Origin: Trypanosoma brucei
Taxonomy: Eukaryota
Assembly: GCA_000002445.1 (NCBI GenBank)
Contig: AE017150.2
Location: 416,001 to 480,000 of the forward strand
Direction of reading: 5' to 3'
Length of the DNA stretch: 64,000 bases
The position numbers and the translations under genes were made by a program. This document shows, piece by piece, positions 30,853-57,475 of this stretch (position 1 is its first letter; the number at the start of each line of letters is the position of its first letter). The notes under the pieces were generated by a model. That model was not told the DNA's origin. It searched no databases and saw nothing but the letters and a program-made list of their open reading frames with translations.

Positions 30853-31295
30853 CGTATATACTTCTGTTGACTACAGTAAAGTATATTTTTTTGTTTTATT
30901 ACTTGTTGTTGTTGTTGTTACAAAAATAGTTTTGTTTCTGTTTTACCACCAGGGCTCTAAGGCAACTCAACGCTTTCCCAAATCCCCGTAGCGCCTATTT
31001 TTTTTTTCTTTCTTTTTTGTTGCCTTTCTCGCCCTCCCCCAACTCATGTCGAAAGAAAAGGAAAGACAACAAGCCAGTTGTGATAGCACTGAGAACACAC
31101 ATACAGACACATAAAAAAAATAAAATATAACAACAACAGTAGCAACAGAAGCAAATTAGAGTGGACACAACAGCAACTCATTGCATCCAGTAACGCATCA
31201 CCACCATCACCACATCAACCACAGCATCAGAAACATTTCTTCTTTCCCTTCTTAACTTCTCAGGCGGCCAATTATTTATTATACGTGAGCCTACC

Positions 31296-31985
31296 TTACC
31301 CAATAATAAAAAAGAGTTCATAAAGTTTCTTCACTGGATCCCAACTGCAGCGATATCTTCCCTTTTCTTCATCACTTCCCGCATTTCCGTAACCGCCCCA
31401 TGATGTTAATCCACTTGAGGTGCGCGGTAATTTCGATGGAAACTTGAGCCCTACCGTCATGTACCCCTCGCAAGCCACTAAAAGATAAACAACATCATCA
31501 TTAGGCGGTTTTTCCACTTCCTGTTCACGTGCTGAGCGCCACCGGTGCAGCGGCCGAGCTCCCTCCACCGCCTGTGGGAAATAAAATTCCAACCAAACTT
31601 TGGTTTGATACAACTCGGGATCATGTTCAGTACAATAATGAAATTCCGGGCGACCGAATGGTGCGAAGGATGTAACTGATGATGCATGTGGTGCTGAAGT
31701 TTGTTGCAGGAGGAGTTCCCGTGTGGCTTTTTCCTGCTCTGCACGGCGCATGGCTTCTTTGTTAAGTTCCTCCTCCTCAGCCAATCGCTTCTCACGATTA
31801 GCGCTGCGCTCAAGGCGCTCAAGTTGCAAACTGTGAGTTTTACCAGCCAAATGTTTAATGAAATTATTGTCATCACTACAACACACGTCACAAAGGGTAC
31901 ACACAACATGTCCCATATGATTCCGCTTATAATAAGGGTCACAACGCGCCTGAGCGGCGGGGTCAAATGCCTTCACATGTGACAT
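31296..31985 (-). CDS. SF3A2: Splicing factor SF3a subunit 2 (SAP62/Prp11 family), 229 aa
   Basis: Matrin-type C2H2 zinc finger (CTLCDVCCSDDNNFIKHLAGKTH) followed by the conserved SF3a2 core (RPEFHY...YQTKVWLEFYFPQAVEGARPLHRWRSAREQEVEKPPNDDVVYLLVACEGYMTVGLKFPS...RYRCSWDPVKKLYELFF), which parallels human SF3A2 IDYPEIAEGIMPRHRFMSAYEQRIEPPDRRWQYLLMAAEPYETIAFKVPS...FWTHWNRETKQFFLQFHF. Confidence 0.85.
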   Translation of the reverse strand: MSHVKAFDPAAQARCDPYYKRNHMGHVVCTLCDVCCSDDNNFIKHLAGKTHSLQLERLERSANREKRLAEEEELNKEAMRRAEQEKATRELLLQQTSAPHASSVTSFAPFGRPEFHYCTEHDPELYQTKVWLEFYFPQAVEGARPLHRWRSAREQEVEKPPNDDVVYLLVACEGYMTVGLKFPSKLPRTSSGLTSWGGYGNAGSDEEKGRYRCSWDPVKKLYELFFIIG

Positions 31986-34900
31986 GTTCTACAAAGGGAA
32001 AGAAAAAGCACAAACACACACACACACACACAATAATAATAGTAATAATAGTAATAATAATAATTCGGAGGCTAATGAATGATGATTACTATTATTGATA
32101 TATATATATATATATATATATCCTGTTCCTCGCCTTCTTATTCTTGTGTCTGTTTTAATCCTCACGTCACCTCAACTTTTTAATTTAACTTAATTTAATT
32201 TCCCCCCCTGCCCCACAACAGCGGAAGCAGTGAGACCTGTCTCTAAAAAAAAAAAAGTAAGTTGTAGTTGTTGTTATTTGTTGTGGAAGATCGAATGAAG
32301 AGAAAAAGAAGAAGAGAGAAAAAAAAAGGAAAATAAATAAATAAATAAATACATACATACATTTGTGAAAGTGAGAATGTGTGTTAAGATTTCAAAAATG
32401 AAAATAACAACAACAGCAACAACAGAGGAATAAACGTTGACATATATGTATATATATATATTGTTTGAAAGAATAAACATGAGATCCAGAGTGGCAATTG
32501 CTGTTGACTGGGATTTCATAATGATGAATTGCAGGGAATTTGATGATGGTACACAAAAACTCGAATTCACTGCGAAAAGTAAAGGAGGAGGAGGGGGGTG
32601 CGGAAACACGCACACACAAAAAAAAAGAAAAAAAGGAAAAAAAAAAACGGTAGAAGCCGTTGCATAATTTGACAATGGAGAGTCACTAAATGTATCTTTT
32701 TCTTTTTTTTGCTTCCGCTTTTGTCATTTTCTTCTGAAAAGCAGATGGTGAATATTAAAAATTAAAAAAAAAACAAAAACAGAAATAAAAATAAAAATAA
32801 AAGAGACAAATTAACAATAATAAACAGCCAATAAAAAAGAAAAAAAAGGAACACAAAATAACACTGGAGAAATAAAAATTAAGAAGACACCCACCCAAAC
32901 AGGCATTTTAGGGGAAATTGAAGGTAAAATAAAAAAGTAATAAAACGCAAAAAAAAAAAAAGCAAATCAAAACAAACAAAACAACATCAAATCAACAACA
33001 ACAACAACAGGAGGAAAAGAGAACCCAAAATCCGTTTCAAACATAAAAGAGGGTAATTTGTTAAAGCATAACAACCATTAAAAACAAAAAAACAAAAACA
33101 AAAACAAAACAAAAACAACAAAAACGAAAAAAAAAAATGTGCGATGCAACAAATTTTATAAGAGAGTTATAAAATGATCATTAATCCTTCACTGTCATCG
33201 CAATATTTGCTTCTCTGTTTCCTCCCTTTTTCTTTTCTTTTATTTGTTAACCCTAACGGATACATGACATCATATTTTACATTTTGTTGTTTTATTTCCA
33301 TCTCACACGTGTCACTGCCACTCTTTCTTTTTTTTTTTTGAAAAATCACACACACACACACACGAAAAAAAAAGGAAAAAAAAAAAGGAAAACACAACAA
33401 AACATAAAATATATGCAAATGCATATATGCGTAAAGTATATACGACGGAGTTTATACATGATGGATTAAGCAATGACGAAAATAAATAAATATAAATATA
33501 TATTAAAAAAGATAAGAAATGAAAAAGAAAAAAAAATGCTTTTTTTACAACAGAAGGAGAAAGAGGAAGAGGATTAAAACAAAAAACAAAAACAAAAAAC
33601 TTTTATTGCCCACCTTTATTTATTTATTTATCTATTTACTTGTTTATTGTTTTATATTTTTTTTTCTATCGCCTATTCCTCCCCTTCTCAAAAATATTTT
33701 TCCGTGTTGTTTCGTGCTGCTGCTTCATTTTTTTTTCCCCTCTTCTTTTCTCTTTATAATCCTAATCCTAATCTTAATCTTAATCTTTTAAAAAAAACTT
33801 TTCCACAGATTTGATATAACTCTTCATTTCCACTCCATTTATTTCCACCTCATATAAACTTACATTTTGTGTTTCTGTACGAAACAACACCGAATAAAAA
33901 TAAGACAAGAAAAAAAAAAGACAAAAAAAAAGAAAAAAAAAAGAAACAACAACAACAAAAGAGAGCACAGAATACAAAAACAAAGCAGTTAGAAATAAAC
34001 ATACAAATATAAATATCTAAATTAAAATATAAATACAAACACATGAATCCGTAAACAGGGTAAACATATATTTGCAGATGCATTTGTAAATGTAATTAAC
34101 CGCAAATAAGTGAATGAACCACCAAATGGAAAGAGGAATCCCGCATGTCCACTCGTATAATAATAGTGAAAATAATAATAATAATAATAATTATTATTAT
34201 TAAAATTATTAAACTTAAAAATTATTAATATTACCCATCGCACAAATCGGATGAAACACACACTTGCACGATCAGACACACGCCGTGTTTCATAATTGCA
34301 TGAAAACAACAAAATTTTTTTTTTCTAATTTTTATTTTAAATCCCTGCACACACCTGCTTCCCTTTTCCCCCTCCCTTGAGTGCGTTCGTATGCAAATTT
34401 CCTCAAAAATAACAAATTTTGAAGTTATGCACACCCACACCCACACGCACTCGATTCTTTTTCTTTTTTTTTTTTAAAAAAAAAACTTGACTATTCATTT
34501 CGTATCAAAACAACAGCAACAACAACAAAACCCATTTTGAAACGTGTTATGGCATCCGCCTGTTATACATATAAATATAAATAAATATAAATAAATATAT
34601 AAATATATATATAATGGTATATGTTCACACATTCACTTACTCGCAATCTTCCCTCCCCCCCATTTCCATATGAAATCATTTTCTTTCCCACCTCCTTTCT
34701 TTTATGTATTTATATTTATTTATTTATATTTACTACAAATATATATATTTTTAAAAATATACACATAAACACAAATATAAACACACATGTGCTCTTTTGT
34801 TTGTTTGTTTGTTTGTCTTTTTTTTTCTTTTTTATTTTTATTGAAAGCCTCACTAATGCAGAGGCCACCGTATGAAATAAAAACTTTTCATGAACGTAAA

Positions 34901-36559
34901 GCAATTAAAAAAAAAAAAGCGCTTGTCATTTGTCACTTCTCTTTTCTTTTCTTTTCTTTTCTTCCTTTTCCTTTTCCCTCTTTTTGCGAAGAGAAAATAC
35001 CTCGCCATTTCTCTTAACATTTATAAAAAAAATGATAATAATTTCCAGTCCACATAATAATGCAAAGAGGAGATATGAGAGGTGAGAGATGAGGGAATAC
35101 AAGAAAAAGAAAAAAAAACAGAAAAAAAAACAAAAAAAAAACAAAAAAAAACAACAAGAAGACAATATAAGATATAAAATATGGAAAAAATGAATTGTGG
35201 AGAAAAAAGAAAAGAAGAGGAGGAATTCAAGTAATTTCGAGGAATGTTGGTAAAAATCGTGTGGTGAACACAACTGCAAAACATAAACCAAAAAAAAAAG
35301 AAAAAAAACATGTTAATAATATACCCGTCACCACCATAAAATAAGAGAACATCGTCATCAACATCAACATCAACAACAACAAAAAAAGAAAAGAGGTTGA
35401 GGCCAATACAATGTAATGGATGGCGATAATTGGATGAATAAAGGGAGAAGGAGGAAAACACACGACACCCACCCACACATACAAACATATAAATAAATAT
35501 AAATATAAATATAACCACAGATAATCGGCGACAAAAAACAAACACACAAACAAACAAAGAAGGTGCGGAAGACAACCACTCTCCGCATCACATCTTAATA
35601 ATATTAATATTATTAATAATATATTATTGTTGTGATATTTTTTTTCAGAGGGTAAATTGAAACAATAACAAACAACAGACAACCACCACAATAACAAAAA
35701 AAAAAAAGGAAAGAACCAGTGGGTTCGTTTCCCTTCCCGTGTTTAATACCCTTTAGAAATATACCAACATCTCCCACATTATTAATTTATAATGCCCTCA
35801 AACAAACACGATGATCGATGCGAGTTGGAGGGCTTGAAAATATTTCTGTTATTTTTCTTAATTATTAAATTTTGAAGAAGAAGAAGGAGGAACAACATAT
35901 GAAAAACATTTAAGAAAGAGAAAGAAAAGAGCCTCCTCCCCCAAATAAAAAAACAAGAGGAAAAAAAAAACAACAACAAAGCAGAGTGGTAAAATTGTCA
36001 CATCGTTAGTTCCTATTCTTTGACATCTTATTCCCTCTTTTTTTCTTTTTCTTTTGTTTTTTTTCCTTTTTAAATACTTTTCTCCGCGTCTATTCATGCT
36101 GTTAAACTTCCTCTGACTTACGGCCACCACAACAACTTCACGCAACTTTCATATGCACACATTTCTATGAACTCAAATAAGTGTAACATTCAACTATTGG
36201 ATGAATATAACCCATCATTTATGTATACGCATGCATATATTTGTGCAGTGAATATGTGGTTAATGCTGCGACGTGGATGTGGACATGAAACGAAATATTG
36301 CCCAAATAATTGCCAAGGTTACGACATGAAGGTATCTCCCATCCACCCCTCCTCTATTTACATTCACACGCACCTAAACAAAAAAAAAAAAAAAGGACAA
36401 ATAAGAAAGAAACAACAACCTTCTCTTCCTCTCCCTATCCTTCTCTTTTTCCTTTTTTTTTCTCTCCATAAAAACAACAATAACGACAAGAAAAATTTCC
36501 TTGTTAATTTGGTTATTAACATGAGATGCCCTCTGATAATTTAATGTTCTCTAAGATTT
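31986..36559. repeat. 4.5-kb gene-free, AT-rich low-complexity tract with strong strand asymmetry (plus strand A/purine-rich), made of many short simple repeats such as (AAAC)n, (AAT)n, (TA)n, (CAA)n and (ATAAAT)n
   Basis: No ORF longer than about 180 codons, and all ORFs here are F/L/C/K-rich low-complexity artefacts. The tract lies between the SF3a2 start and the GDPD stop, so it would be 3'UTR plus intergenic plus 5'UTR of the minus-strand unit. Confidence 0.7.
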
Positions 36560-44800: not shown

Positions 44801-47800
44801 CTACCACAATGAGCCCATCCACCCCTTCACTTTGCCATCGAAACGGTTCGACGATGTCGGCTTGGAGGGACTCCCAAGTGCACTACCAACCAGTGCTCCA
44901 GTGCCCCTTTGAAGGGATGTCGCGCTCAACCCACCAATAATACCACTATCGCCTCTCACGCCCACAGCGACGCTACTACTTTTGTTAAAAGCAAACACGG
45001 CCGTCTTGGTTACACCACCATCCACGATATCTGATCCCAATACCTTCGACGGTGTGAATATCAACGGCAGTAGAGGAAAACGGGGCTTCTCTTTTGTGAT
45101 GCTAATGTCGCCGGCAACAGTCCGCTCCCCTTTCAGGGATGTCCGGCTGTCACCAGTTCCCTTTGCAGTCCAAACTTCCTCCAGAGCTTTGGGGTTCCAT
45201 GAGCCAAAAGAGAGAGCCGTCACGCGAAGCAAGCGGTCGCTTGCTTGCAGAAGTAGCGGTGAAATGACTAACCAAGAAGTGGGGTTTACCCAACCTTCAA
45301 TTGTGCGGAGAACGGCGGTAATGGACGGCGTCGGTGCCCGACTGTTGCCGTCGATGGAGAATAAACCTGAAATGTATAATGAATCAAAATAAACTTGAAA
45401 CAGCAGTTCGTCGTTATCACCAGCACTATCGCCACTCTTACCGGCATTTCCGCTTCTATTTACCGCCGCTATCTCTCTTATCCACGGAAGAACCGCGTTA
45501 AGCAGTGCTGACGAGGTTCCGTCAAGTAACTCATTTATGACCATCGGCAGCACCGTGGCACGTAGACGCTTGTTGACACCATTCTTGAACAACATATGCT
45601 GTACCTGGAAAATAAGTTCATTCACATGCGGGGTGACATGTGTCGGGTGCTTAGTAACTTTCTGTGACTCACATTGTACCCCATCAGGTGTGCTGCAGCT
45701 CCAGCAAGTTGCGTACTCGAGCATGAGCTGTTGTCCGTTGATACAAGATGTCCTCTTGTTGGGATCGAGGGTTGTAGCAGAGGAGTTCAGCGGCGTCTTT
45801 GATCTCGCGAAGAGATGCTCGGGCGCGAAAGCGCGGCGGTAGGCATGACGCACACCATCCTCCCACTCGCTGCGTAACAATTTCACCCACGGCGTATGAC
45901 ATGTTACAATGGCCTCACGTAGTTCCATGGGGAGTGTGCTCGCTACATTTCGTGGGGCTGCAACTTCCAGCACCTGCAACAGCACCTCCACCAGCATGGA
46001 AATGCGGTTGAGTGCTGCCATCACCGTCACCTTCGCCTCAAAGCAGTTGCCTTCCACATTCAGCTCCTCCCACTTCTGAAGTTGCCCCGTGTGGTGCTTT
46101 AACAGCTTACGCACCTGTTGCAGGATATTTGTAAACCACTCCCCTACGAGAACAGAGAGTGTGGGGTGCGAGTCAGACCAGGTTCGCTCCACCTCAAAGA
46201 TACGTTGCAACATGGAATACAGCGAGCCGAACTTCAGAGCAGCCGAGGAATCATCATCGACAGCATCGGTGACGCCCTTTTCTGATTTGTCACTTGCTTT
46301 CTCCATAGCCACTGTCCTTTCCTCCTCTCCTTCATCAACGGAGAACAAATTATCATCACTTCCTGCATCTGTCTCCACGGTTTGCATCACCCATCCACCC
46401 TTGTCTTTATTTACGTTCCCACCGGATGCCCGACAGCCCGCCTTAGAGCTAAGATTGGCCGGCAATCTTCCCTCCTTTGGGGTTGTTTTCGATTTTATTG
46501 CAGTGCACTGCATAATACCCCGAGCCAACGCGGCATTCAAATTCTCGCCCTTCTCCGCTGAAGCCACATTTCGTTTATTTTCATCGCCACCCCCAAAAGA
46601 GGAGCACGGGACCATGCACGTCATTTGGTCGGTGTGAAGCAGCCCAAAGGATGTACTTTCGCTGAAGAAGATGGACCGCTGAAGGACTTTCTGGGCAAAT
46701 GTTGTCACGCTGGGCGGTCCCTCTTGTTTCTGCTGTTGGGGTGGCTGCTCTTCGGCGGAGGCGACAACGGTGCTTTTATATCCTTTCCCCTCACTTATAT
46801 GCTTCAGTATAGCGCCGCAAACTCTATCTGCCCTCTTCAATGCCGCTCCAACAGTCTTCAGGAGTGCAGACTCCGTCGCCTGACGAACCGCTTCCCCCCA
46901 CTTGCGTGCGTCAAACAAGTTAACAGCAGCACCCCCAGAAACAGTTAAGTTACTTCCCTCCTGCGCAGATGAGAGCAACATATCCTGAAGCATTTTCCCC
47001 TGCTGGCGAGCAAGGTGCTGTTGAAGTGAAATCGTGCGCGGGTCGTTTAGCAGCCCGGCACCAGACACATGCAACAGCAACTGGAGCGCCAGCTCCTGTA
47101 CAGCTCGCAGTTGGTGTCCCACCTTGCTAAAAACCGCTGTCTCATCACCGCTAACCCCGCTGCACTTCGCAATCTTTTCATTTGAAGAGAAGGAAGAGAA
47201 TCCCCACTGCAATGGAAGAGGATCCAAGATCTGCATCCCGCAAACCTGCCGCATCACTTCGCAGAGATATAGTGTTCGGTGTCGAGACCGTCGCTCACCG
47301 TCTTGGTTCAATCCCACCATGGAAGAAGAGGCATCCAGTGACCCACATTTGGAATCCCCATCCTTTTTCTCACTATCATCTGTTGCCGAGGCAATTGACC
47401 CGCCGCGTTGCGACGCTGAAAGCGCTTCCCGCGCGAGACTCCCACTCATCCTAACAGACTTAGCGCGTCCTGTTCCGGAGGTCTCGTTATCTCCCTCTGT
47501 GTTTGACTCCTGGGAAGTAAGCTTTGAACGAAGCGCAAGAAGCCCCTGCAGTGCGTATCGCCGCCGCTGAGAATCCACGTAGGCGTCCAACTCCCCCGCA
47601 GAAACCTCGTCAGGTTGCTCTCCACCACGGGAACCGTTCGTTCCCCTTCCTTCCCTCGCTGGACCACTCGGTGAGTACAGCACAGAAGCAACGTATAGGA
47701 CAAGATGGGAGAAGAGGTGTTGTGCGCGCTGTACGATGTGCAGTGCCACGGTAGCTTCGCTTACGACCAACCGTGCGTTGACCCTTGCTTCAGTGCTGCT

Positions 47801-49000
47801 GTTTGCATCCTTCGCCAAAGCGGGGACCCTTGGGGCACTTGTTCCCTCGCTTCTTAAGTAAGGCGGAAGCTCCAGGGCTGCCCGCAGCCACTCCATTCTG
47901 CGAAGTGGGCGTAAACTTCTTCCATCGTCAGTGTTAGTGTCTACAGCCGCTGCCTGCGTAAATGACGTTCCCTTCAGTGCAGCCACGACGTGGTCAAGGT
48001 CAGTCTTAATCATATCGTGAATCGTATCGATAAGGAGTAACAGTGCGTCATTCACTGTTGCGTGCGAAAGCACTCCTAAGGCTTTGTGGACCTCCGTCAT
48101 GTGAGCCAGTGCTCGTGATAAATCACTTTTCCAACCTGTTGCCCTACCCATGAATTCAACACCACCTGATGATGTAAACATGTTTGTGGACGATGTCAAG
48201 GATAAGTCCCCACCACCGCTATCATTTCGATTGGCGTTAGCCACACTCAAAGCGCTTTGTGCGGCCTGTTCTGCATCTTCCCGAAGCAGCCCACGCACTG
48301 CACGTTTGAGACGATGTTCATAGGACTCAACAGCCAGCTTTTCATGAGGCTGTTTCCGTTCCCTTCTTATCTGCAAGAGCAGCGCAGCGGCGTCATAAAG
48401 CTTACGGGCACCCAACAATCCCTCCAGAGCCGCGCACTGCTGAGTGTAAATTAACACGTCTCGTTGTCTATCATCTGCCCCCTCACGCCCCCCTCTTGGC
48501 GTTTCTTCACACACACCCTTCAAAGTCGCGGTTGCCTCATGAGGCAACGGGGACCTCACCACCTCGGAAACCGGTGGCGAAGCACTGCTTGAGTGTCCCA
48601 TATGTCGACTCGTTTGAGTTTTCCCTTCTCCCACATTCTTCGCGCGCGGACTTTTACCTCCATGGGGGGATATGGTCCGCAAAACGGGTGACGAGACCCC
48701 CCTTGGGCTCTGCGGCATTGTCAGACGCGACTGTGAATATTGATTCTCCAACTGTTGCTGTTTTTTCTCCTCCTGCATTTGCTTTTGCAGACGCAGCAAC
48801 TTCCTGCATGCCTGTTCTACGACGACCACCTGGTCACAAGCGGCAACGAGGCCCCGGTAGCTTTGGCCGACAAGTTGTTTGAGTCTCTCATCACTTTCTT
48901 GAATGCCTGGTGTTATACGGCTCAGGTAGTCGCGGGCCTGATCCACGCTATTGTTGGTGAAAATGCGTCGCACTTCCTGAATGGCTTCCTCCGATGACAT
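44801..49000 (-). CDS. Large protein (about 1399 aa) with a COG1/Vps51-type N-terminal motif, a candidate Golgi/endosomal tethering-complex subunit
   Basis: The N-terminus (VDQARDYLSRITPGIQESDERLKQLVGQSYRGLVAACDQVVVVEQA) matches the Vps51/COG1 signature (EE.R.LVGE.YRDLI.AADTI). The track ORF begins at TTG (49079-49081). I trimmed to the first in-frame ATG at 49000 (MSSEEAIQ...), which also lies just downstream of a polypyrimidine tract plus AG. The functional call is tentative. Confidence 0.45.
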   Translation of the reverse strand: MSSEEAIQEVRRIFTNNSVDQARDYLSRITPGIQESDERLKQLVGQSYRGLVAACDQVVVVEQACRKLLRLQKQMQEEKKQQQLENQYSQSRLTMPQSPRGVSSPVLRTISPHGGKSPRAKNVGEGKTQTSRHMGHSSSASPPVSEVVRSPLPHEATATLKGVCEETPRGGREGADDRQRDVLIYTQQCAALEGLLGARKLYDAAALLLQIRRERKQPHEKLAVESYEHRLKRAVRGLLREDAEQAAQSALSVANANRNDSGGGDLSLTSSTNMFTSSGGVEFMGRATGWKSDLSRALAHMTEVHKALGVLSHATVNDALLLLIDTIHDMIKTDLDHVVAALKGTSFTQAAAVDTNTDDGRSLRPLRRMEWLRAALELPPYLRSEGTSAPRVPALAKDANSSTEARVNARLVVSEATVALHIVQRAQHLFSHLVLYVASVLYSPSGPAREGRGTNGSRGGEQPDEVSAGELDAYVDSQRRRYALQGLLALRSKLTSQESNTEGDNETSGTGRAKSVRMSGSLAREALSASQRGGSIASATDDSEKKDGDSKCGSLDASSSMVGLNQDGERRSRHRTLYLCEVMRQVCGMQILDPLPLQWGFSSFSSNEKIAKCSGVSGDETAVFSKVGHQLRAVQELALQLLLHVSGAGLLNDPRTISLQQHLARQQGKMLQDMLLSSAQEGSNLTVSGGAAVNLFDARKWGEAVRQATESALLKTVGAALKRADRVCGAILKHISEGKGYKSTVVASAEEQPPQQQKQEGPPSVTTFAQKVLQRSIFFSESTSFGLLHTDQMTCMVPCSSFGGGDENKRNVASAEKGENLNAALARGIMQCTAIKSKTTPKEGRLPANLSSKAGCRASGGNVNKDKGGWVMQTVETDAGSDDNLFSVDEGEEERTVAMEKASDKSEKGVTDAVDDDSSAALKFGSLYSMLQRIFEVERTWSDSHPTLSVLVGEWFTNILQQVRKLLKHHTGQLQKWEELNVEGNCFEAKVTVMAALNRISMLVEVLLQVLEVAAPRNVASTLPMELREAIVTCHTPWVKLLRSEWEDGVRHAYRRAFAPEHLFARSKTPLNSSATTLDPNKRTSCINGQQLMLEYATCWSCSTPDGVQCESQKVTKHPTHVTPHVNELIFQVQHMLFKNGVNKRLRATVLPMVINELLDGTSSALLNAVLPWIREIAAVNRSGNAGKSGDSAGDNDELLFQVYFDSLYISGLFSIDGNSRAPTPSITAVLRTIEGWVNPTSWLVISPLLLQASDRLLRVTALSFGSWNPKALEEVWTAKGTGDSRTSLKGERTVAGDISITKEKPRFPLLPLIFTPSKVLGSDIVDGGVTKTAVFAFNKSSSVAVGVRGDSGIIGGLSATSLQRGTGALVGSALGSPSKPTSSNRFDGKVKGWMGSLW

Positions 49001-49074
49001 GGCGTGCCGAAAAGCGTGTTGAAAATTTCCTAAGCAACGTTCCCTACGGTTGTCTTGCCTCTTGCGTACTGTTC

Positions 49075-49098
49075 TTTTCAAACAAAAGAGAAGGACGG
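49075..49098 (-). promoter_or_regulatory. Polypyrimidine tract (minus strand): candidate trans-splice acceptor region for the COG1/Vps51-like gene
   Basis: Plus strand reads ttcaaacaaaagagaaggacgg. This overlaps the TTG pseudo-start of the track ORF and supports the downstream ATG at 49000. Confidence 0.35.
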
Positions 49099-49829: not shown

Positions 49830-52454
49830 CTACAATCCACTGCACACTTCTCCACAGTGGTACCATTTCCAAGGGCTTTTGGCATTCTTTTGCACACAGC
49901 CGAAATCATCTTCTTGAGTGCATATCATTCTGCCACTGCGACTTGAGCGCAACCCAACATGCTGAAGAAACGACTCGCGAGAGCGGCGGGATCCGAGTCC
50001 ATATTTCTCCACGTGTTTAAGCGCCGCTTCCCCGTCACTTCTCAACCCCCGCGCAGCGTTGGATTGGCCAAATAGCACAAAGTTCAAGCGCACCAAACCC
50101 CGCAATCGCGCATCCCTCACTTTAGAGGACATGTTTGCGACTTTGTTATTACCGCTTGTTCCATTCCCGGCACCTTTTGCGTGGACGACAGCTGCAAAAG
50201 CAATGGGCTCAGTCGGGGCGTAAAAATCCCAGCCGTGCGTCCACAACCGCCCCGCAAGTAAAACGGCCTCTTCATCTGGTGTCAGGAAACCCATGTACGG
50301 GTCCAGTGGAACGTGATTCCCAGCATTGCCACTGCTACTATTATTGTGGCTATTTTGGTGGTCTGCTGCGTCATGCGAGAAATCAAAGAAGGCACCTGCG
50401 CGAGTGAAAAGGAAATCTGTGCTTAACCACGGTTGCGAAAGTGACGAAGGAAAGCTTTCCTGTCGCCTGCTTCCAAGGCACACCGCATCATTCTTCTCAT
50501 TACACCAATGGATGGGTAGAGGCTCCATATACCGCCGATCGCGCAGGACATATGTGAGGCGGCGCCTGGACTCATATCTCAATTTGAATTTTGCTCCCTC
50601 TCCCCCCGACACAGTGGCGCTAACGTCCTCCCCATTTTCCACGTTGCCACAACCACTGCTGCCGCCGTCGCTTTTCGCATCGCACACTTTCCGGCAACCT
50701 TCTTCGCTGTGCTGCATCTTTACTGCCACACCACATACGTAGGAGGTGGTGTTTTGTTCACTCATACTTGTCAGCAGTTTCTTACGAAGTGGTTCACGCA
50801 ATTTCTTCATCCAATACAATTGGGCACTATTTGGCATCCGGGTTCTCACATTTGGGATCGAGGCTCCGTTTCGCGGGTAGTTGAGAGGTTCTGCTCCAGA
50901 GGTTGCTTCACCGCCATCTTCCTCTGTGGGAAGTCGGAAAAGGAACTCCACAACATCTTCACTCCCGAATCCTCTGGCGCCTTCCGCAGCACTTTCGCCG
51001 TTTCCATCCCCCTTCTCTTTGTCCTCCATTCCATCGGAACTGTGTAAACGCAGTCCTTCAAGATCGTACAGAGCAGATCCACTCCTTTTCTTTGAAGGAT
51101 TTCTCTCGTGAGCTACGTTGAAGTAATCTTCCGTCCCTCCCCTTTCCTTTCCACGTTGGTCATCACGGAATTGTTGATCCCCATGATCCTTAACCCCTTC
51201 ATGTCTGTGACCTTCATTGCTTACGTGGCGGACCACAACTTCTTCCCATGCGCGATGCACCACATCTCGCTGTATGATGTTTGCCATCTGCGAGAGTATA
51301 GGCCGTCGTGACGGGAGCCTTAGTAGCATGAGCCGCGCTGTCACATCCCATGAGGGCACTAACAACACGCCTGCATTAAGAAACATCACGTATGTTTCGC
51401 CGCGATACAGGGCGAGCGTTGCATACCGCTGGGAGGCAATGGAGGTAAAGTCACTGAGCCCTCCACTTGCATCACTCCCACTTGAAGCATCCCCATCCCT
51501 GTAACCAGCATGCTCGTAGTCGTCCTCAGCTCTTCGACTGCGTGGATTTTCTTTTTTTTCACTCACCTTGACGTTACCTTCGCCTCCACCCATATTGCTT
51601 CCTTTGCTGTGCCTTCGTGACTTAGCCGACACACGCAGTTGCCGCAGCCGTATGTTGTCCCGTGGACAGAATCCATACCGTTCGGCGCACGTGTGAGACT
51701 GATAAGCAACAGGAATACATGGAGACGATGGTGGGAAAGGCCACCGGGACGAGTTGTGACCTCCGCGCCCACCCGATTCCTCAGCCGTCATTACGTCGGG
51801 GAGGAACTCAACGATACCGGTGAAAATAGCAACTGACCAAAGTGCCGATTCATATAAGTTGTGAACTGTCATAGCACACACACTCTCTAGAGAAACAGAC
51901 CTTCTCATACGAACCAGTGGCGTTTCATGGTGCAGAAGACCAACGAAGATACTACCCTCGAGCCCGTAGCCGCGGCGTGCGACATGAGTTGGACTCCAGT
52001 ACGTGTCGGAATGTGTGACATTCTTTATGGAGCCATTGTCCAACCTCTTTTCTAACTCATTGTTGAACTTAGGAAGCTGCGTTTCATAGTATTCCAGCAA
52101 AATGGCCGCGGGCGTTGCATTCGGGGGCAAACCAAACATATCCGTGGCTCCTCCAGCTGCCGCTACTGATGCAGGCATTCCATCAGTTTCCTGGTCCACG
52201 AATGCCGTCAATACTGACAGAAGTTTCGTGGTAAATGAAAAAACCGCTGGCGAGGCCCGCAAGTTTCCGACCCCTGGCAAACCACCCCGAACAGCATGGC
52301 TTCCTTCACCAATGTGGCCACCTCTCATTCTGTTTTTACGCTCGCGCGACATATTATTCCATAACAAGAAGGTAACCATGACTAAGGCTGGGAGCACCAT
52401 ATACATCGGGACGGTTATGCAACGCCGGCCCCGACGCCGTGTTTCTGAGCGCAT
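49830..52454 (-). CDS. Divergent GT60-like (polypeptide alpha-GlcNAc-transferase-like) type II membrane protein lacking the DxH motif, about 874 aa; paralog of 55226-57475
   Basis: N-terminal signal-anchor (VPMYMVLPALVMVTFLLW). It aligns with the neighbouring paralog through LYRGETYV, FLFTRAG, VPLDP and RLWTHGWD blocks. The position of the paralog's LILDSHTRF motif reads MFLNAGVLL here. The track ORF starts at GTG, so I trimmed to the first ATG at 52454. Confidence 0.6.
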   Translation of the reverse strand: MRSETRRRGRRCITVPMYMVLPALVMVTFLLWNNMSRERKNRMRGGHIGEGSHAVRGGLPGVGNLRASPAVFSFTTKLLSVLTAFVDQETDGMPASVAAAGGATDMFGLPPNATPAAILLEYYETQLPKFNNELEKRLDNGSIKNVTHSDTYWSPTHVARRGYGLEGSIFVGLLHHETPLVRMRRSVSLESVCAMTVHNLYESALWSVAIFTGIVEFLPDVMTAEESGGRGGHNSSRWPFPPSSPCIPVAYQSHTCAERYGFCPRDNIRLRQLRVSAKSRRHSKGSNMGGGEGNVKVSEKKENPRSRRAEDDYEHAGYRDGDASSGSDASGGLSDFTSIASQRYATLALYRGETYVMFLNAGVLLVPSWDVTARLMLLRLPSRRPILSQMANIIQRDVVHRAWEEVVVRHVSNEGHRHEGVKDHGDQQFRDDQRGKERGGTEDYFNVAHERNPSKKRSGSALYDLEGLRLHSSDGMEDKEKGDGNGESAAEGARGFGSEDVVEFLFRLPTEEDGGEATSGAEPLNYPRNGASIPNVRTRMPNSAQLYWMKKLREPLRKKLLTSMSEQNTTSYVCGVAVKMQHSEEGCRKVCDAKSDGGSSGCGNVENGEDVSATVSGGEGAKFKLRYESRRRLTYVLRDRRYMEPLPIHWCNEKNDAVCLGSRRQESFPSSLSQPWLSTDFLFTRAGAFFDFSHDAADHQNSHNNSSSGNAGNHVPLDPYMGFLTPDEEAVLLAGRLWTHGWDFYAPTEPIAFAAVVHAKGAGNGTSGNNKVANMSSKVRDARLRGLVRLNFVLFGQSNAARGLRSDGEAALKHVEKYGLGSRRSRESFLQHVGLRSSRSGRMICTQEDDFGCVQKNAKSPWKWYHCGEVCSGL

Positions 52455-52570
52455 GGGTTCGGCTACACTGTTTGAGGCGCTGCGAATTTTTGTGACGCGC
52501 TCCACCGAGCTTACGTCTCGGATTCTCGAGAACCCTTTCTTGCTATGCGCGCGCAGATCCTAGAACTAGG

Positions 52571-52660
52571 TAAATGAAATGGAAAATAATAATAATAATA
52601 ATAAAAAACGGGAGAAGAAGGTACGACCAAAGGAACAAGAAGGTAAGGAAAGTAAATGGA
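52571..52660 (-). promoter_or_regulatory. Polypyrimidine tract (minus strand): candidate trans-splice acceptor region for the divergent GT60-like gene
   Basis: Plus strand is purine-rich ((aat)n, aaaaaacgggagaagaaggtacgaccaaaggaacaagaaggtaaggaaag). The first ATG downstream after AG dinucleotides is 52454. Confidence 0.35.
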
Positions 52661-53405
52661 AAGCCGTTCGGCCGCAAAACAAGCCTAACACAATTTGGAG
52701 GCAGGAAATGATGAAATGCACAAGAAACAGTAGAAGTAAGTGCATCTGGGAGTTATAAATTGGATCATGACGACTTTTCTTTCTTTTCTACCATCTTACA
52801 GATACATGGGAAACACTATCCTAGAGCAGACGTAAAGCCTCGGCGTGTTGGCTCATCTACCCTAAGAACTCTTCATTTCCCCTCTCTCTGTTCCGTGTGC
52901 ACTTCGCCCCATGTCTTTAAAATCAGGAGAGGATCTGGGCTAGTTCCACGGCATTCATTTCCTTCCCTTTTCGTTATCCTCACTTCGTTCGGCGCATATG
53001 CACCTTCTTGACATTCTTCACTAACTATCGGCGCCTCTCCTAAACCACATCACCCTCACAAATGGAAGGAATGCACAACTCACCCTTCAATGCTTTCTAT
53101 CCGGCAACTCAAATTGTGTTTCGCCCCCCCAAATCGGTAAAAGGAAGAAAAGAGTTGGCTCAAACACTCACAAGAAGGAAAGAAAAAAAAGGCGATGATT
53201 AGAATCCTCTCCCCACTCAAAGACTTAACCACGCAAAACGGGGGGAACCGGTCAGGAGGACATAACAAAGAAGTCCACACAGTCAAGGGGAAAAGTGCAA
53301 GGAGAGAGAAAGAGAGCAGCGCATGAAGGTCGGGGAGGGCCGGGCCGCTTCCACACTGAAAGTCGACACGTGACGAATCGGGCGAAAAGCAAAAAAGTAC
53401 CGGAA

Positions 53406-53892
53406 CTATCGACGGCCACCCTTACGCTTTTTATTGCCGCCACCATGCTGCTGCTGCTGCTGCTGCTTCTGCGAGGTATTGCCTTTACCACCACCACTTT
53501 CTGCCGACTTCCCTCCAGATTTGTTGCCACCAGCAGGGACCGTACCATCAGTTTCCTTTCCAGAGGACTTCTGCCGTGGAGATGCGGCATTTATGTTAGG
53601 AACCCCCGTTCCTCCTCCTCCTCCTCCGGTGGCCGCTGAAGGCGGTGGGGCTGTGAGGGAGACGGTGCAGCGGGAGACGAAGTCATGGACGATTTCCTCC
53701 ACAATTTTGAGCTCCCCCTGATTTTTCACACGTGTTGTGAGGGTTGTGCGACCATCGGTGGACTTCAAAACAAACGTCTTGCGTCCGCTCGAAGGCCGCA
53801 CACGCAACATCAAACGCGACTTCTTCACGCCGCTCAGCTCAACCATACGGCGTGTAGCCTTGGCGAAGTCCTTCAGCGGCAGATTAACCATT
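53406..53892 (-). CDS. Small basic protein (about 161 aa) with an SRP9/SRP14-fold-like core and a Gly/Lys-rich tail
   Basis: The core FAKATRRMVELSGVKKSRLMLRVRPSSGRKTFVLKSTDGRTTLTTRVKNQGELKIVEEIVHDFV can be threaded onto SRP9 (F.[59 protein letters not shown]). The C-terminal tail is GGGGGGTG...GGKSAESGGGKGN...KKRKGGRR. The track ORF starts at GTG (54065). In-frame ATGs occur at 53925 and 53892. The polypyrimidine tract at 53931-53978 followed by the first AG favours 53892. Confidence 0.4.
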
Positions 53893-53930
53893 TCCCCTTC
53901 CCGTGGTTGACTCTTCACCACCATCCAATC

Positions 53931-53978
53931 CAAAAAAAAAGAGAAAAAAGAAAAGGAGATAAAGGAGATAAAGAAAAG
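53931..53978 (-). promoter_or_regulatory. Polypyrimidine tract (on the minus strand) with a downstream AG: candidate spliced-leader trans-splice acceptor region for the SRP9/14-like gene
   Basis: Plus strand reads ccaaaaaaaaagagaaaaaagaaaaggagataaaggagataaagaaaag, which is C/T-rich on the transcribed strand. The first AG downstream lies between the two candidate ATGs. Confidence 0.4.
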
Positions 53979-55225
53979 TTGTAAGTGGTAAACGTCAAGG
54001 GCAGAAGCAGTCAGCGAATGTGAAAACGTGGTGTCAATCGTACACACAGCGCATCTTCTTTCCACTTTTTTCCTCTACTCACAGGTCACTCTCGAAATTT
54101 CCCTCCCCCAAACGTCCCGGGTACGCACAAAACGTGATACGGTGTAAAGCATGTGGGATCAGATTGTTCGCGAAATCGTGTTTGCATTTAAATACACACA
54201 CACACATATAAATATAAATATAAATATATATATATACAAGCATATATATTCGTTCGCAAAGTGTGCGTGCGCGTGTGGAAACTCCTTGTTGCTGAGGCCC
54301 TCGTGTGTCTGCCCAGTATAACTTCTGTAACCATTCAAATGAAAAGGAGGTGCACGAAATGACTATGGGTGACGGTGCGAAGACAGGTATCCGGCAACTG
54401 TTGTTGTGATTTTGCTGAGGCAGCAAAGTTTCCCGGTTCCATCCCTTTCATTCACCGGACTACTATTGCAGTAGGATAAAATATACAGTCAACTTCATAG
54501 CGTCCCACGCCAAGTAAATGAAATGATGAGGTGAAGGCCAGCGACTTCACAATGAGGCATAGACGACTGATTGTAGGAGAATACGAATAACAGCACAGCG
54601 GCTATTAAATATAAAAGGGAATAACTTTTTTTTTTTGAATTTGGGGGATAAATATAACACAATAAAACGCTTTTCAACACACCGACAAACTGCACCCAAA
54701 TGCAAGCATGCATACGGTACGAAGAGAGGGTTTCCATCTCGACTGGACTCCTGACCCGTTGTGCTAACGGTTTTCAATCCTTTTCGCCTCTTTTATTCAT
54801 TCATTCATTCGTCTCCTCTCCGATGCCTGTGTTTAGGATGAGTTACGCGGCACTCCTGCGTGTCAATAGGACGAACTGGAGCTGCAACACAAATTATGGG
54901 ATCAATGGCCACCGCAATGATTAAAAGGGGGACGAAGGCAAAGCAAAACAAAACAACAAAACGAGCTGCAAGAAGAAATAAACGCCGCAAACAAGTTCAA
55001 ACAATGTCCCTCAAACTTGTCTTCACCTTCACAACGGTTGTGGACAACTTTGTGTTCGAGCAAAGTGACAGGGAGCGAGCAGCTTCAAAAGTTAAAAAGA
55101 AAAAACTAAACTAATGGGTTTAGGAAAGTTGCACACAAAGGTAAAGTTCGATAAGCGTAAAATGGCGTAAACGATGAACAATGAAGCGTAGAGATGGAGG
55201 AGGAGTCCACCCTAATGGGACCACA

Positions 55226-57475
55226 TTAAATCTTACCTTTGCCACACCATCGGCCATCGAATGTGTAGCGCACAGGATCCAATCCAGCGAATCGGTACCA
55301 GTTCTCCACCGTTCGCACTCGTCCCATACCGTAGCGATCCACGTCGATTGTCACCGCCGGATCTGTCGTATTTACCGGGACTTTTGGTACCGTCTGCCCC
55401 TTTTCTCGTGTCTGTAGCAGACACTGGATGCGCTCCCTCGATCGCAAACGCAAACTGGACCAAAGAGGGTTGTTATTCCACACCTTCGGCTGATCATTAC
55501 GGGTGTACACATGATAACAGATAGTACGGTTGGGGGAGTGGATATCATAGCCATGAGTCCACAGCCGCACGGAATACAACACTTCTTCACCATCGAAGGT
55601 ATTGGGGAGATGAGGATCGAGGGGAACCTCACGCATAATAGAACCTCTAGCGAAGAGAAACCCACCCGCTGCCCATGGCTGTGGCAGCGGTCGACTGACA
55701 TCCGCGTCTGGTTTGCGACCGAAACCCTTAGCGGCATAGCGCAAAACCCGCCCTTGGTGGGAGAATTTGTTAACATTTTCTTCATTAACAAGAATGCCTC
55801 CTAGCCGAACATATCCATCTGATTCAATAAATGAAGCACGACAAAGGTAAACAGTGGTGGTCCGTTCATATGTGAAATTTGAGAGCTCCTTTTCAAATCC
55901 CTCAGGGTAGTGGGAAAGAACAATCCGTGGGTGGCGTAAGTACATATGCATAGCAACTACACGTGAGTCCCAGCCATAAACGAAACGTGTGTGCGAATCC
56001 AGTATAAGAACATAGTCCTCTCCACGGTACAGCAGCATCGTCATGTAACGACCATACGTTGGCCCTCGGGCTGCATCAGGTGCAATGTGCCTTAACCTAA
56101 TGTTGTCCATTGGGAAACACAACACATCACTGAAGGCAGCCCTTGCACTTGCCGTGTCGGATGCAATAGCGGCAGAAGGACAAAGTGTGGGCTGAAACAA
56201 ATCATATGACAGACACGGCGGGTCTGACTTGTTGTGTTGCTCTGCTATACCAACGTACGTACGAAACATGTTTGTCGCGCGGTGCACCACCTGCTGCAAC
56301 GTCGAGTGGCACTCCACGTCTCGAAAACTCGCTACACTCACAAATATGGAGGCTGTATGAGAAGGCGAGAAGGATACGGCGTGCTCTTTAATTTCAGGAT
56401 TCTCAGGACTGCTCCCGCTATGGTTAGACACTTGCGCACCTTCGTATGATTGCTGCAATGACGACTCGAATGGTTCCATCTCTTCTCCATAGTAATCAAG
56501 TGCCATGGTATCGAACCATGCAGCGACCGTGCTAATAGTATCAGGAGAAAAGGATTGCATCCGGTGAAAACGCCGTAGTGGGTAATAAAACCGGCCCTCC
56601 ATTACTGAGGGAGCTGAAATTCTCTTCCGCCTCCACCACAGACGATCAGCAGACGATATGGAACGCGTGGGTTCCTCCTTAGCGAAGAAGGAGAGAAGTT
56701 GCAGGTAGAGAATATCATCAAATGGCTCAAAGGCCTCTACTTCCCCCCTTTCGATATCGTGGCTCCCCGTACTGTCAATGCGCTGTGAGCGATCGTCGTT
56801 ACTTGCACCAAACTTTTCCTTAACAAAAAATGCAGCACGATCTAATCCAACGTCTGGGTCCAGCGTCATGATGTCTTGTATTGTCTCCCGTAAGTCGGCC
56901 AGCACCTCCGCGAAACTACGTTGAGACAGCGAGGTACCGTTGGAGACCCGCGGTTTCTCACTTGCATATTTGGACTTTCCCTGTGGTACCCCGGAGTCAC
57001 CAACATTACCGTTATCACCGGCATTCTCATCATCGCCATGGGTGCTCTTCGAGACGCGTGCTTCCATTGACCGTTGATACGTCGATAAAAATTCCAGTAA
57101 CGCCGTCGCTTCACGATCGGAACCAGTTCGCATTATTGTGTCGTACAACCTGCGTATCTCGAGAAGGGCAGATTTGTCAGGGTCCTCCACAATGTGCGTT
57201 TTTGAAGAGAATGCATCAATTGTTGACCACCCGTCACTTCTTAAGAGGATACACAAAAGCACCACGAACAATACTATGAACAGCAGTATGAGCAGAGCGA
57301 CAACAAAAAGTAAAGCATAAAGCAATGGACTCTCATTGTTGCGTTTCGTGAAGTCCCCAACGGCATCATTGACACCCCTGAAGCTCCGGGCTAAGACACG
57401 GAGGCGACCAGGTTTTTGGGCCGGTGGCAGACGCAACTGATTTTGCCGCCTTGCACCACGCGAGGCATAATGCAT
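55226..57475 (-). CDS. GT60-family-like glycosyltransferase (UDP-GlcNAc:polypeptide alpha-N-acetylglucosaminyltransferase-like), type II membrane protein, 749 aa
   Basis: N-terminal transmembrane anchor (LLYALLFVVALLILLFIVLFVVLLCILL). GT-A-like first strand IFVSVASFRDVECHSTL, a hydrophobic strand followed by DxH (YVLILDSHTRFVYGWDSRV), and C-terminal blocks GGFLFARGS..VPLDP and RLWTHGYDIHSP typical of Gnt1/pp-alpha-GlcNAcT-type enzymes. ATG at 57473-57475. Confidence 0.6.
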   Translation of the reverse strand: MHYASRGARRQNQLRLPPAQKPGRLRVLARSFRGVNDAVGDFTKRNNESPLLYALLFVVALLILLFIVLFVVLLCILLRSDGWSTIDAFSSKTHIVEDPDKSALLEIRRLYDTIMRTGSDREATALLEFLSTYQRSMEARVSKSTHGDDENAGDNGNVGDSGVPQGKSKYASEKPRVSNGTSLSQRSFAEVLADLRETIQDIMTLDPDVGLDRAAFFVKEKFGASNDDRSQRIDSTGSHDIERGEVEAFEPFDDILYLQLLSFFAKEEPTRSISSADRLWWRRKRISAPSVMEGRFYYPLRRFHRMQSFSPDTISTVAAWFDTMALDYYGEEMEPFESSLQQSYEGAQVSNHSGSSPENPEIKEHAVSFSPSHTASIFVSVASFRDVECHSTLQQVVHRATNMFRTYVGIAEQHNKSDPPCLSYDLFQPTLCPSAAIASDTASARAAFSDVLCFPMDNIRLRHIAPDAARGPTYGRYMTMLLYRGEDYVLILDSHTRFVYGWDSRVVAMHMYLRHPRIVLSHYPEGFEKELSNFTYERTTTVYLCRASFIESDGYVRLGGILVNEENVNKFSHQGRVLRYAAKGFGRKPDADVSRPLPQPWAAGGFLFARGSIMREVPLDPHLPNTFDGEEVLYSVRLWTHGYDIHSPNRTICYHVYTRNDQPKVWNNNPLWSSLRLRSRERIQCLLQTREKGQTVPKVPVNTTDPAVTIDVDRYGMGRVRTVENWYRFAGLDPVRYTFDGRWCGKGKI

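Follow-up and report, generated by a model that had tools for sequence, protein, structure and literature searches.

The GT60 paralogs of the window

A 64,000-nucleotide stretch of Trypanosoma brucei TREU927 chromosome 2 (hereafter the window, with all coordinates counted from its first letter) was analysed for two related genes of the glycosyltransferase (GT) family GT60, Gene A and Gene B, which flank a small basic gene. Gene A encodes a catalytic-type GT60 protein. Gene B encodes a diverged paralog that has lost the catalytic motifs, is maintained by purifying selection, and is probably a pseudo-glycosyltransferase. The three genes are located as follows.

55226-57475, minus strand: Gene A, catalytic-type GT60 protein of 749 aa, identical to XP_951543.1 (UniProt Q586L3; exact protein match)
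53406-53891, minus strand: small basic gene lying between A and B, 161 aa if read from the first ATG past a polypyrimidine tract
49830-52454, minus strand: Gene B, GT60-derived protein of 874 aa whose catalytic motifs are gone, identical to XP_951541.1 (UniProt Q586L1; exact match)

The original prediction, which was made from the letters of the window without database searches, described the open reading frames (ORFs) 55226-57475 and 49830-52454 as homologous type II membrane proteins on either side of a small basic gene, and all three were recovered at these positions. It named a Pfam profile search as the means of assigning both proteins to GT60. With the GT60 profile (PF11397 'GlcNAc', CAZy GT60; Pfam gathering threshold of 21 bits, profile length of 352), Gene A scored 478 bits (E = 2.6e-143) over residues 376-735 and profile positions 1-351 of 352, which corresponds to a full-length match, and Gene B scored 79 bits (E = 5.2e-22) in two stretches, above the cut-off. 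BLASTP between the two proteins returned three collinear alignments (E = 1e-11, 3e-7, and 1e-3), and the blocks proposed to be common to both were present (LYRGEDYV/LYRGETYV, FLFARG/FLFTRA, VPLDP, and RLWTHGYD/RLWTHGWD). Given these E-values and the two PF11397 matches, the homology of A and B is not a product of chance.

Both proteins have one N-terminal hydrophobic segment with basic residues before it, which fits the predicted type II topology.

57242-57328, minus strand: signal anchor (type II transmembrane segment) of Gene A, approximately residues 50-78; Kyte-Doolittle 19-residue windows exceed 1.6 nowhere else in A
52356-52418, minus strand: signal anchor of Gene B, approximately residues 13-33, from hydropathy

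A polypyrimidine tract and AG, a splice-acceptor-like arrangement, precede Gene B, and the first ATG downstream of them is the one at 52454; thus the anchor belongs to Gene B. Some automated B gene models in public read assemblies (P0031-P0034) are 840 aa long, i.e., 34 residues shorter, and fit a start at Met35, in which case the signal anchor would be missing.

The window has 13 ORFs of 250 aa or more, and every one is on the minus strand. The original prediction described A and B as partners in one transcription unit; the shared unit was abandoned as an argument for a functional link because the region is one polycistron of the usual trypanosomatid kind, and sharing it says nothing on a functional link between the two genes.

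Motifs retained and lost

The catalytic type was represented by 16 GT60 proteins, of which 13 were kinetoplastid A-type proteins and three were distant GT60 proteins (413-492 aa; from metagenomes and genomes). In this set, 40 ungapped columns are invariant, and Gene A keeps all 40, including DSH and the C-terminal His. Orthologs of Gene A are found in Trypanosoma, Leishmania, Porcisia, and Leptomonas. Its main motifs are listed below.

56318-56350, minus strand: strand 1 and its loop, SIFVSVASFRD; F378, A382, R385, and D386 are invariant in catalytic GT60
55991-55999, minus strand: DxH motif, D493-S494-H495, at the end of the central strand; invariant in 16 of 16 catalytic-type GT60 sequences aligned
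55544-55591, minus strand: GEE (629-631) to WTHGYD (639-644); E630, E631, R637, T640, H641, G642, and Y643 are invariant in the catalytic family
55499-55513, minus strand: C-terminal His motif, HVYTR; H655, Y657, and R659 are invariant

The proposal that DSH in Gene A is the equivalent of the DxD motif was borne out by its invariance in the 16 proteins and by the survey of GT-A enzymes by Taujale et al., in which DxH replaces DxD in GT27 and GT60 (PMC7185993). The survey places these two families as sisters, and a C-terminal His coordinates the metal in GT27 (PMC7185993). H655 of Gene A would be the equivalent of this His judging from the order of the motifs, on which the comparison rests because the Protein Data Bank (PDB) sequence set contains no GT60 structure. 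By analogy with GT27, the DxH pair and the C-terminal His of Gene A would hold the metal that binds the diphosphate of uridine diphosphate (UDP). On the strength of its motifs, Gene A is very likely to be catalytically competent, and it is predicted to be an active Mn2+-dependent UDP-N-acetylhexosamine:polypeptide alpha-transferase.

The corresponding features of Gene B are as follows.

51942-51977, minus strand: B-clade signature RRGYGLEGSIFV leading into strand 1; R160, R161, G162, Y163, G164, S168, I169, F170, and V171 are invariant in 17 B-type proteins
51444-51632, minus strand: insertion 1, residues 275-337, rich in Gly/Ser/Asn and in charged residues, mostly confined to T. brucei and T. 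congolense
51369-51377, minus strand: N360-A361-G362 in the DxH column, motif lost (BLASTP, hidden Markov model, and MAFFT)
50475-51278, minus strand: insertion 2, residues 393-660, lying after the DxH strand and before the FLF block, approximately 210 aa more than in A
50181-50273, minus strand: C-terminal block, with EEA where A has GEE, RLWTHGWD kept, and AAVVH for HVYTR (C-terminal His lost)

YVLILDSHTRF of Gene A is aligned with YVMFLNAGVLL of Gene B by BLASTP, by the hidden Markov model (HMM) of the catalytic family, and by a MAFFT alignment of 24 sequences. The DxH column falls where it was originally placed, and the motif is not retained in B; as GT60 similarity is also significant for both proteins, neither of the two outcomes named beforehand as refuting the prediction was observed. 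The losses extend beyond this motif and comprise, in the numbering of A, R385, D386, D493, S494, H495, E631, H655, Y657, R659, W666, and W672; an independent HMM alignment identified the same columns as the MAFFT alignment. At the C-terminus, HxYxR is changed to AxVxH (H655 to A, Y657 to V, and R659 to H), and the last acid of GEE is replaced (E631 to A). The ASYRD loop after strand 1 is lost, with both R385 and D386 substituted by E. The Gly-Gly preceding FLF is Thr-Asp in T. brucei B. Of the 40 columns invariant in the catalytic family, 16 are common to all seven full-length Trypanosoma B proteins, and what Gene B keeps is mostly scaffold (F170, G213, R343, L349, W369-D370, F681, D718, R736, T739-H740-G741, and G819/G821/R824).

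Gene B has approximately 300 aa of charged, low-complexity insertions altogether, in agreement with the original description. Residues 275-337 consist of 38% Gly/Ser/Asn and 34% charged residues, residues 393-660 of 32% charged residues, and residues 690-714 of 48% Gly/Ser/Asn. All B orthologs have insertion 2, which reaches a greater length in Leishmania. Another charged or Gly/Ser-rich segment was noticed at approximately residues 580-620 (window positions approximately 50600-50720, minus strand), and it occurs, like residues 275-337, in T. brucei and T. congolense only. Being confined to these two species, both segments are recent additions in the African trypanosome lineage.

Over 275 ungapped columns, Gene B is 28.5% identical to the kinetoplastid A types and 19.7% identical to the distant GT60 proteins, and Gene A is 31.8% identical to the latter. 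This pattern fits a duplication inside the kinetoplastids followed by an acceleration of B.

Conservation of the B lineage and its neighbourhood

B orthologs from Trypanosoma were obtained for T. brucei, T. grayi, T. congolense, T. cruzi, T. cruzi marinkellei, T. conorhini, and two strains of T. rangeli (n = 8), in which the DxH column reads NAG, RDG, NDG, RAG, TAG, or AAG. An exhaustive HMMER search with the B profile retrieved B types beyond Trypanosoma, including Leishmania martiniquensis and Strigomonas culicis, and the B-type protein of L. braziliensis was taken from its locus. A profile search of a word-indexed protein database with the B alignment found nothing further. In an alignment of 17 B-type proteins, whose named members are Trypanosoma species, L. 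braziliensis, L. martiniquensis, and S. culicis, the DxH column reads NAG, RDG, RAG, TAG, AAG, HAD, HSG, KAG, RSG, TSG, NPG, RPR, RTG, or RPG; the T. congolense protein (P0003), which is outside this alignment, reads NDG. DxH and the C-terminal His are absent in all 17 proteins, and the loss is old. The His of WTHG is lost in the B types outside Trypanosoma (WTRG, WTSG, and WMKG).

The B clade has invariant positions of its own, namely RRGYGxEGSIFV, DN(I/L)R, LYRGE(S/T)Y, WD, LF..AE.F, TE(P), and two Cys. Among these, RRGYGxEGSIFV does not vary across the 17 B-type proteins and does not occur in catalytic GT60, and it appears to be the best candidate for a functional site belonging to the B clade itself.

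The ratio of nonsynonymous to synonymous substitution rates (dN/dS, omega) was estimated by the Nei-Gojobori method. For B, omega was 0.26 between T. cruzi and T. c. marinkellei (dS of 0.30) and 0.50 between T. rangeli AM80 and SC58 (dS of 0.15); for A, it was 0.44 in the latter pair. Within B, the GT-A-derived blocks were the most tightly constrained (0.10-0.22) and the stem the most loosely (0.42), and the value for the big insertion 2 was 0.29 (T. cruzi vs. T. c. marinkellei). At least 17 genomes or assemblies have B as an intact, full-length ORF. Gene B is under purifying selection and is maintained, and it is no relic. The non-catalytic reading of B in the original prediction, which was based on the DxH column and the insertions, emerged stronger than it was put forward, as the C-terminal His, the ASYRD loop, and the last GEE acid are also lost, the losses extend to all 17 B types, and B is under purifying selection.

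In the T. brucei window, T. cruzi, and T. rangeli, Gene A is followed by a gene of 155-161 aa and then by Gene B, beyond which lie a Vps51/COG1-like gene and, next, an Ank/RING gene. The B-type gene lies directly upstream of the A-type gene in L. braziliensis, S. culicis, and another kinetoplastid-like assembly (loci L002:5026-13015, L007:308-6368, and L008:38-5430), and no small gene is called between the pair. In the last-named assembly, the pair is followed by a large ORF without a Pfam match and then by an Ank/RING gene, at the positions of the downstream neighbours in Trypanosoma. In each case, DxH (DAH in Strigomonas), FDGEE, WTHGY, and the C-terminal His are retained by the A-type neighbour. 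The adjacency of the A-type and B-type genes thus held in every lineage checked although their internal order flipped between lineages, which indicates an old tandem duplication and is mildly suggestive of a functional tie between A and B.

The small gene is conserved and syntenic in T. cruzi (157 aa; L001:9058-9531) and T. rangeli (155 aa; L003:6947-7414). Its product has a strongly conserved N-terminal domain of approximately 75 aa and a Gly/Ser/Gln-rich tail ending in QQQQQQHGGGNKKRKGGRR. It matched no Pfam family and no PDB sequence, and tblastn of the L. braziliensis locus found no counterpart. A divergent SRP14 was considered as an identity for the small protein and was unsupported, given the lack of a Pfam or PDB match and a BLASTP alignment against human SRP14 with E = 0.019 in a different register. 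That the small gene is part of an A/B system is not demonstrable. The intergenic region between Gene A and the small gene (approximately 54100-54430) contains TA and TG dinucleotide repeats, which a spurious ORF translates as YIYIYIY and CVCV.

The next gene downstream of B (44801-49081, minus strand) is an ORF of 1426 aa with a Vps51/Exo84/COG1 N-terminal domain (PF08700, E = 5e-11), and its product could be a subunit of a Golgi tethering complex. The region at approximately 31000-36000 is AT-rich (GC of 0.28-0.30 vs. approximately 0.5 elsewhere) and lies inside the same-strand gene array. It has no ORF of at least 250 aa, just short A-rich or AT microsatellites.

A probable pseudo-glycosyltransferase beside a predicted enzyme

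The loss of both metal ligands and of two further donor-site elements, the conservation of the B lineage, and its own invariant motifs make a pseudo-glycosyltransferase the best reading of Gene B. Judging from these sequence features, we consider it probable that B is non-catalytic and has been kept beside the complete GT60 enzyme A since an ancient tandem duplication, and somewhat more probable still that B is without canonical glycosyltransferase activity. The gene of a CAZy GT60 UDP-sugar:polypeptide glycosyltransferase (GT-A fold, retaining) would have been duplicated in tandem in an early kinetoplastid. Gene B would then have retained the hydrophobic GT-A scaffold and the signal anchor, lost the metal ligands, the ASYRD loop, and the second GEE acid, and gained the large insertions, and it would most likely be unable to perform canonical metal-dependent sugar transfer. 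Selection would keep B for a non-catalytic role in the lumen of the secretory pathway, where we infer it to be located. As the most economical guess, B would be a scaffold, chaperone, or regulatory partner of A, as COSMC is for T-synthase; that B acts through A is suggested by analogy and is put forward tentatively.

In COSMC, a GT31 paralog without catalytic activity, DxD and xED have been lost, and the protein serves as the chaperone of T-synthase (PMC7185993). COSMC (C1GALT1C1) is, in relation to T-synthase (C1GALT1), a GT-A paralog that lost its motifs and was kept for a non-catalytic job, and B likewise combines motif loss with purifying selection. The two cases differ in that the COSMC pair belongs to the inverting family GT31, whereas A and B belong to the retaining family GT60, and in that the COSMC interaction was proven by experiment, whereas an A-B interaction is hypothetical. 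B, unlike COSMC, exceeds its active paralog in size and contains large insertions. In the Golgi lumen, non-catalytic or weakly catalytic paralogs also pair with active enzymes in CHPF with CHSY, EXT2 with EXT1, and plant GAUT7 with GAUT1. These belong to unrelated families, and their likeness to the proposed A-B pair would be one of logic only; structures of CHPF and EXT appeared in the structure-comparison results.

Structure prediction was also performed for B. AlphaFold2 with the 24-sequence alignment of A and B gave a predicted template modelling score (pTM) of 0.62, with predicted local distance difference test (pLDDT) values of 70-94 in regions 165-275 and 340-420, and a strand at 355-360 ended at the former DxH position. 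The model is compatible with a GT-A scaffold for B. Several points weigh against the reading of B as a pseudo-glycosyltransferase. The GT-A fold of the B model is not independent evidence because the alignment contained the catalytic paralogs; with only the eight Trypanosoma orthologs of B, the mean pLDDT was 34 and the model was unusable. Foldseek of the B model against the PDB returned nothing significant (best E-value of 0.04). Sequence and profile searches found no PDB sequence match for A or for the A-family alignment, and there is no solved GT60 structure. Where long polycistrons are conserved, as in these genomes, the adjacency of A and B says little for a functional link. Some GT-A families, namely GT14 and prokaryotic GT6, work without DxD or metal (PMC7185993), and the first DxH position is basic in most of the 17 aligned B types (R in nine, K in one, and H in two).

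B may also be non-catalytic and independent of A, for instance as a receptor of lectin-like type, as a factor in cargo handling or quality control, or as a structural protein of the Golgi or endoplasmic reticulum (ER) that descends from GT60, which we regard as possible although rather doubtful. The clade-wide insertion, ranging from approximately 210 to more than 400 aa, is itself under constraint, the invariant motifs of B are absent from A, and the T. cruzi protein OGNT2 has non-catalytic effects on differentiation, as summarised in PMC10778605. Against such independence, A-type and B-type genes adjoin and co-occur in every lineage checked despite the flipped order, a mild hint of linkage, and nothing seen here points positively to an independent ligand.

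It is distinctly unlikely that B is still an enzyme, whether a glycosyltransferase that is metal-independent or otherwise rewired or a related group-transfer enzyme that may use another donor or acceptor, with basic side chains or B-specific motif residues (RRGYGxEG and TEP) in place of the metal site of DxH and the C-terminal His. GT14 and prokaryotic GT6 lost DxD independently and do not need the metal, and basic residues at the first DxH position would fit such a replacement. B also keeps the acidic DEE segment, VPLDP, and, in Trypanosoma, RLWTHG; its clade-specific motifs are strongly conserved, and omega is low in the GT-A blocks. However, the basic residue is not conserved, as the position is Asn in T. 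brucei, T. congolense, and one further B-type sequence, Thr or Ala in T. rangeli, and Thr in one other B type. Four separate elements of the donor and metal site were lost together, the WTHG His is missing outside Trypanosoma, and the Gly-Gly of the G-loop is Thr-Asp or Pro-Asp in Trypanosoma B and non-Gly in the other B types. A decaying pseudogene or gene-model artefact that lost DxH by drift, to which the long branch, the low-complexity insertions, and the automated models starting 34 codons downstream without the membrane anchor would lend themselves, is effectively refuted by the dN/dS values, overall and in the core blocks, and by the intact full-length ORFs, and the clade has invariant motifs of its own.

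The names TcOGNT1, TcOGNT2, TcOGNTL, and TbOGNT1 are used in the review by Duncan and Ferguson (2022; PMC9472816). Naming of the T. cruzi GT60 family dates from 2009 and already took in the 'like' member; for this family, the review cites Heise et al. (2009 Glycobiology 19:918) and Koeller et al. (2014 Eukaryot Cell 13:1312). The 'like' paralog of the original prediction, which is probably inactive, belongs to a family in which a pair of this kind is already named in T. cruzi. The T. cruzi family is the Pfam and CAZy family of A and B, and its locus has the identical arrangement (a full GT60 protein of 724 aa, the 157-aa gene, a diverged GT60 protein of 814 aa, and the Vps51/COG1-like gene). 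A is 45% identical to the T. cruzi protein named UDP-GlcNAc:polypeptide N-acetylglucosaminyltransferase in UniProt, and B is 34% identical to the product of the diverged T. cruzi GT60 gene, compared with which it has extra lineage-specific insertions. Gene A is very probably the TbOGNT1 of the literature. Gene B is presumably the ortholog of TcOGNTL, as it is syntenic with the third, diverged T. cruzi GT60 gene and the review lists three T. cruzi names. Heise et al. reportedly treated the L sequence as divergent, and Koeller et al. are reported to describe non-catalytic effects of T. cruzi OGNT2 on differentiation. In literature searches, nothing but the 2022 review came up for TbOGNTL or the two protein accessions, and a search on pseudo-glycosyltransferases returned unrelated cyclitol enzymes.

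The animal polypeptide N-acetylgalactosamine (GalNAc)-transferases of GT27 have DxH and a C-terminal His and start Ser/Thr O-glycosylation (PMC7185993). They differ from A and B in carrying a C-terminal ricin-type lectin domain, which was not detected in A or B, and in using UDP-GalNAc as the donor, whereas GT60 uses UDP-N-acetylglucosamine (UDP-GlcNAc); no PDB chain matched A or the A-family alignment at the sequence level.

The original prediction assigned to this family the start of mucin-type O-GlcNAc glycosylation in trypanosomes. This is documented in T. cruzi, whose enzymes start the GlcNAc-alpha-O-Thr mucin glycans, but no such glycans are known in T. brucei, in which the role of TbOGNT1 is open (PMC9472816). 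TbOGNT1 has low expression and no known product, and the Glc-alpha-O-Ser of variant surface glycoproteins (VSGs) has been floated as a possibility (PMC9472816). A bolder proposal, which we rate as improbable, is that OGNTL is an obligate, kinetoplastid-wide, non-catalytic subunit of OGNT1 that acts in folding, retention, or acceptor specificity in the manner of COSMC or GAUT7, and that the T. brucei pair makes an orphan linkage, e.g., Glc-alpha-1-O-Ser on VSGs.

The gain is incremental, as B adds one more member to a gene family that already has a name and, probably, one more pseudoenzyme of a known type; it should still help with annotation and with the planning of knockouts. The database label 'glycosyltransferase (GlcNAc)' for B would be an over-annotation. 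GT60 enzymes start the O-glycosylation of the T. cruzi mucin coat, and the single catalytic GT60 protein of T. brucei still seeks a function; phenotypes from knockout, RNA interference, or over-expression of A or B should be read with a possible A-B dependency in mind. The B-specific motifs (RRGYGxEGSIFV, TEP, and LF..AE.F) offer mutagenesis targets for the role of a GT-A scaffold that would no longer be an enzyme.

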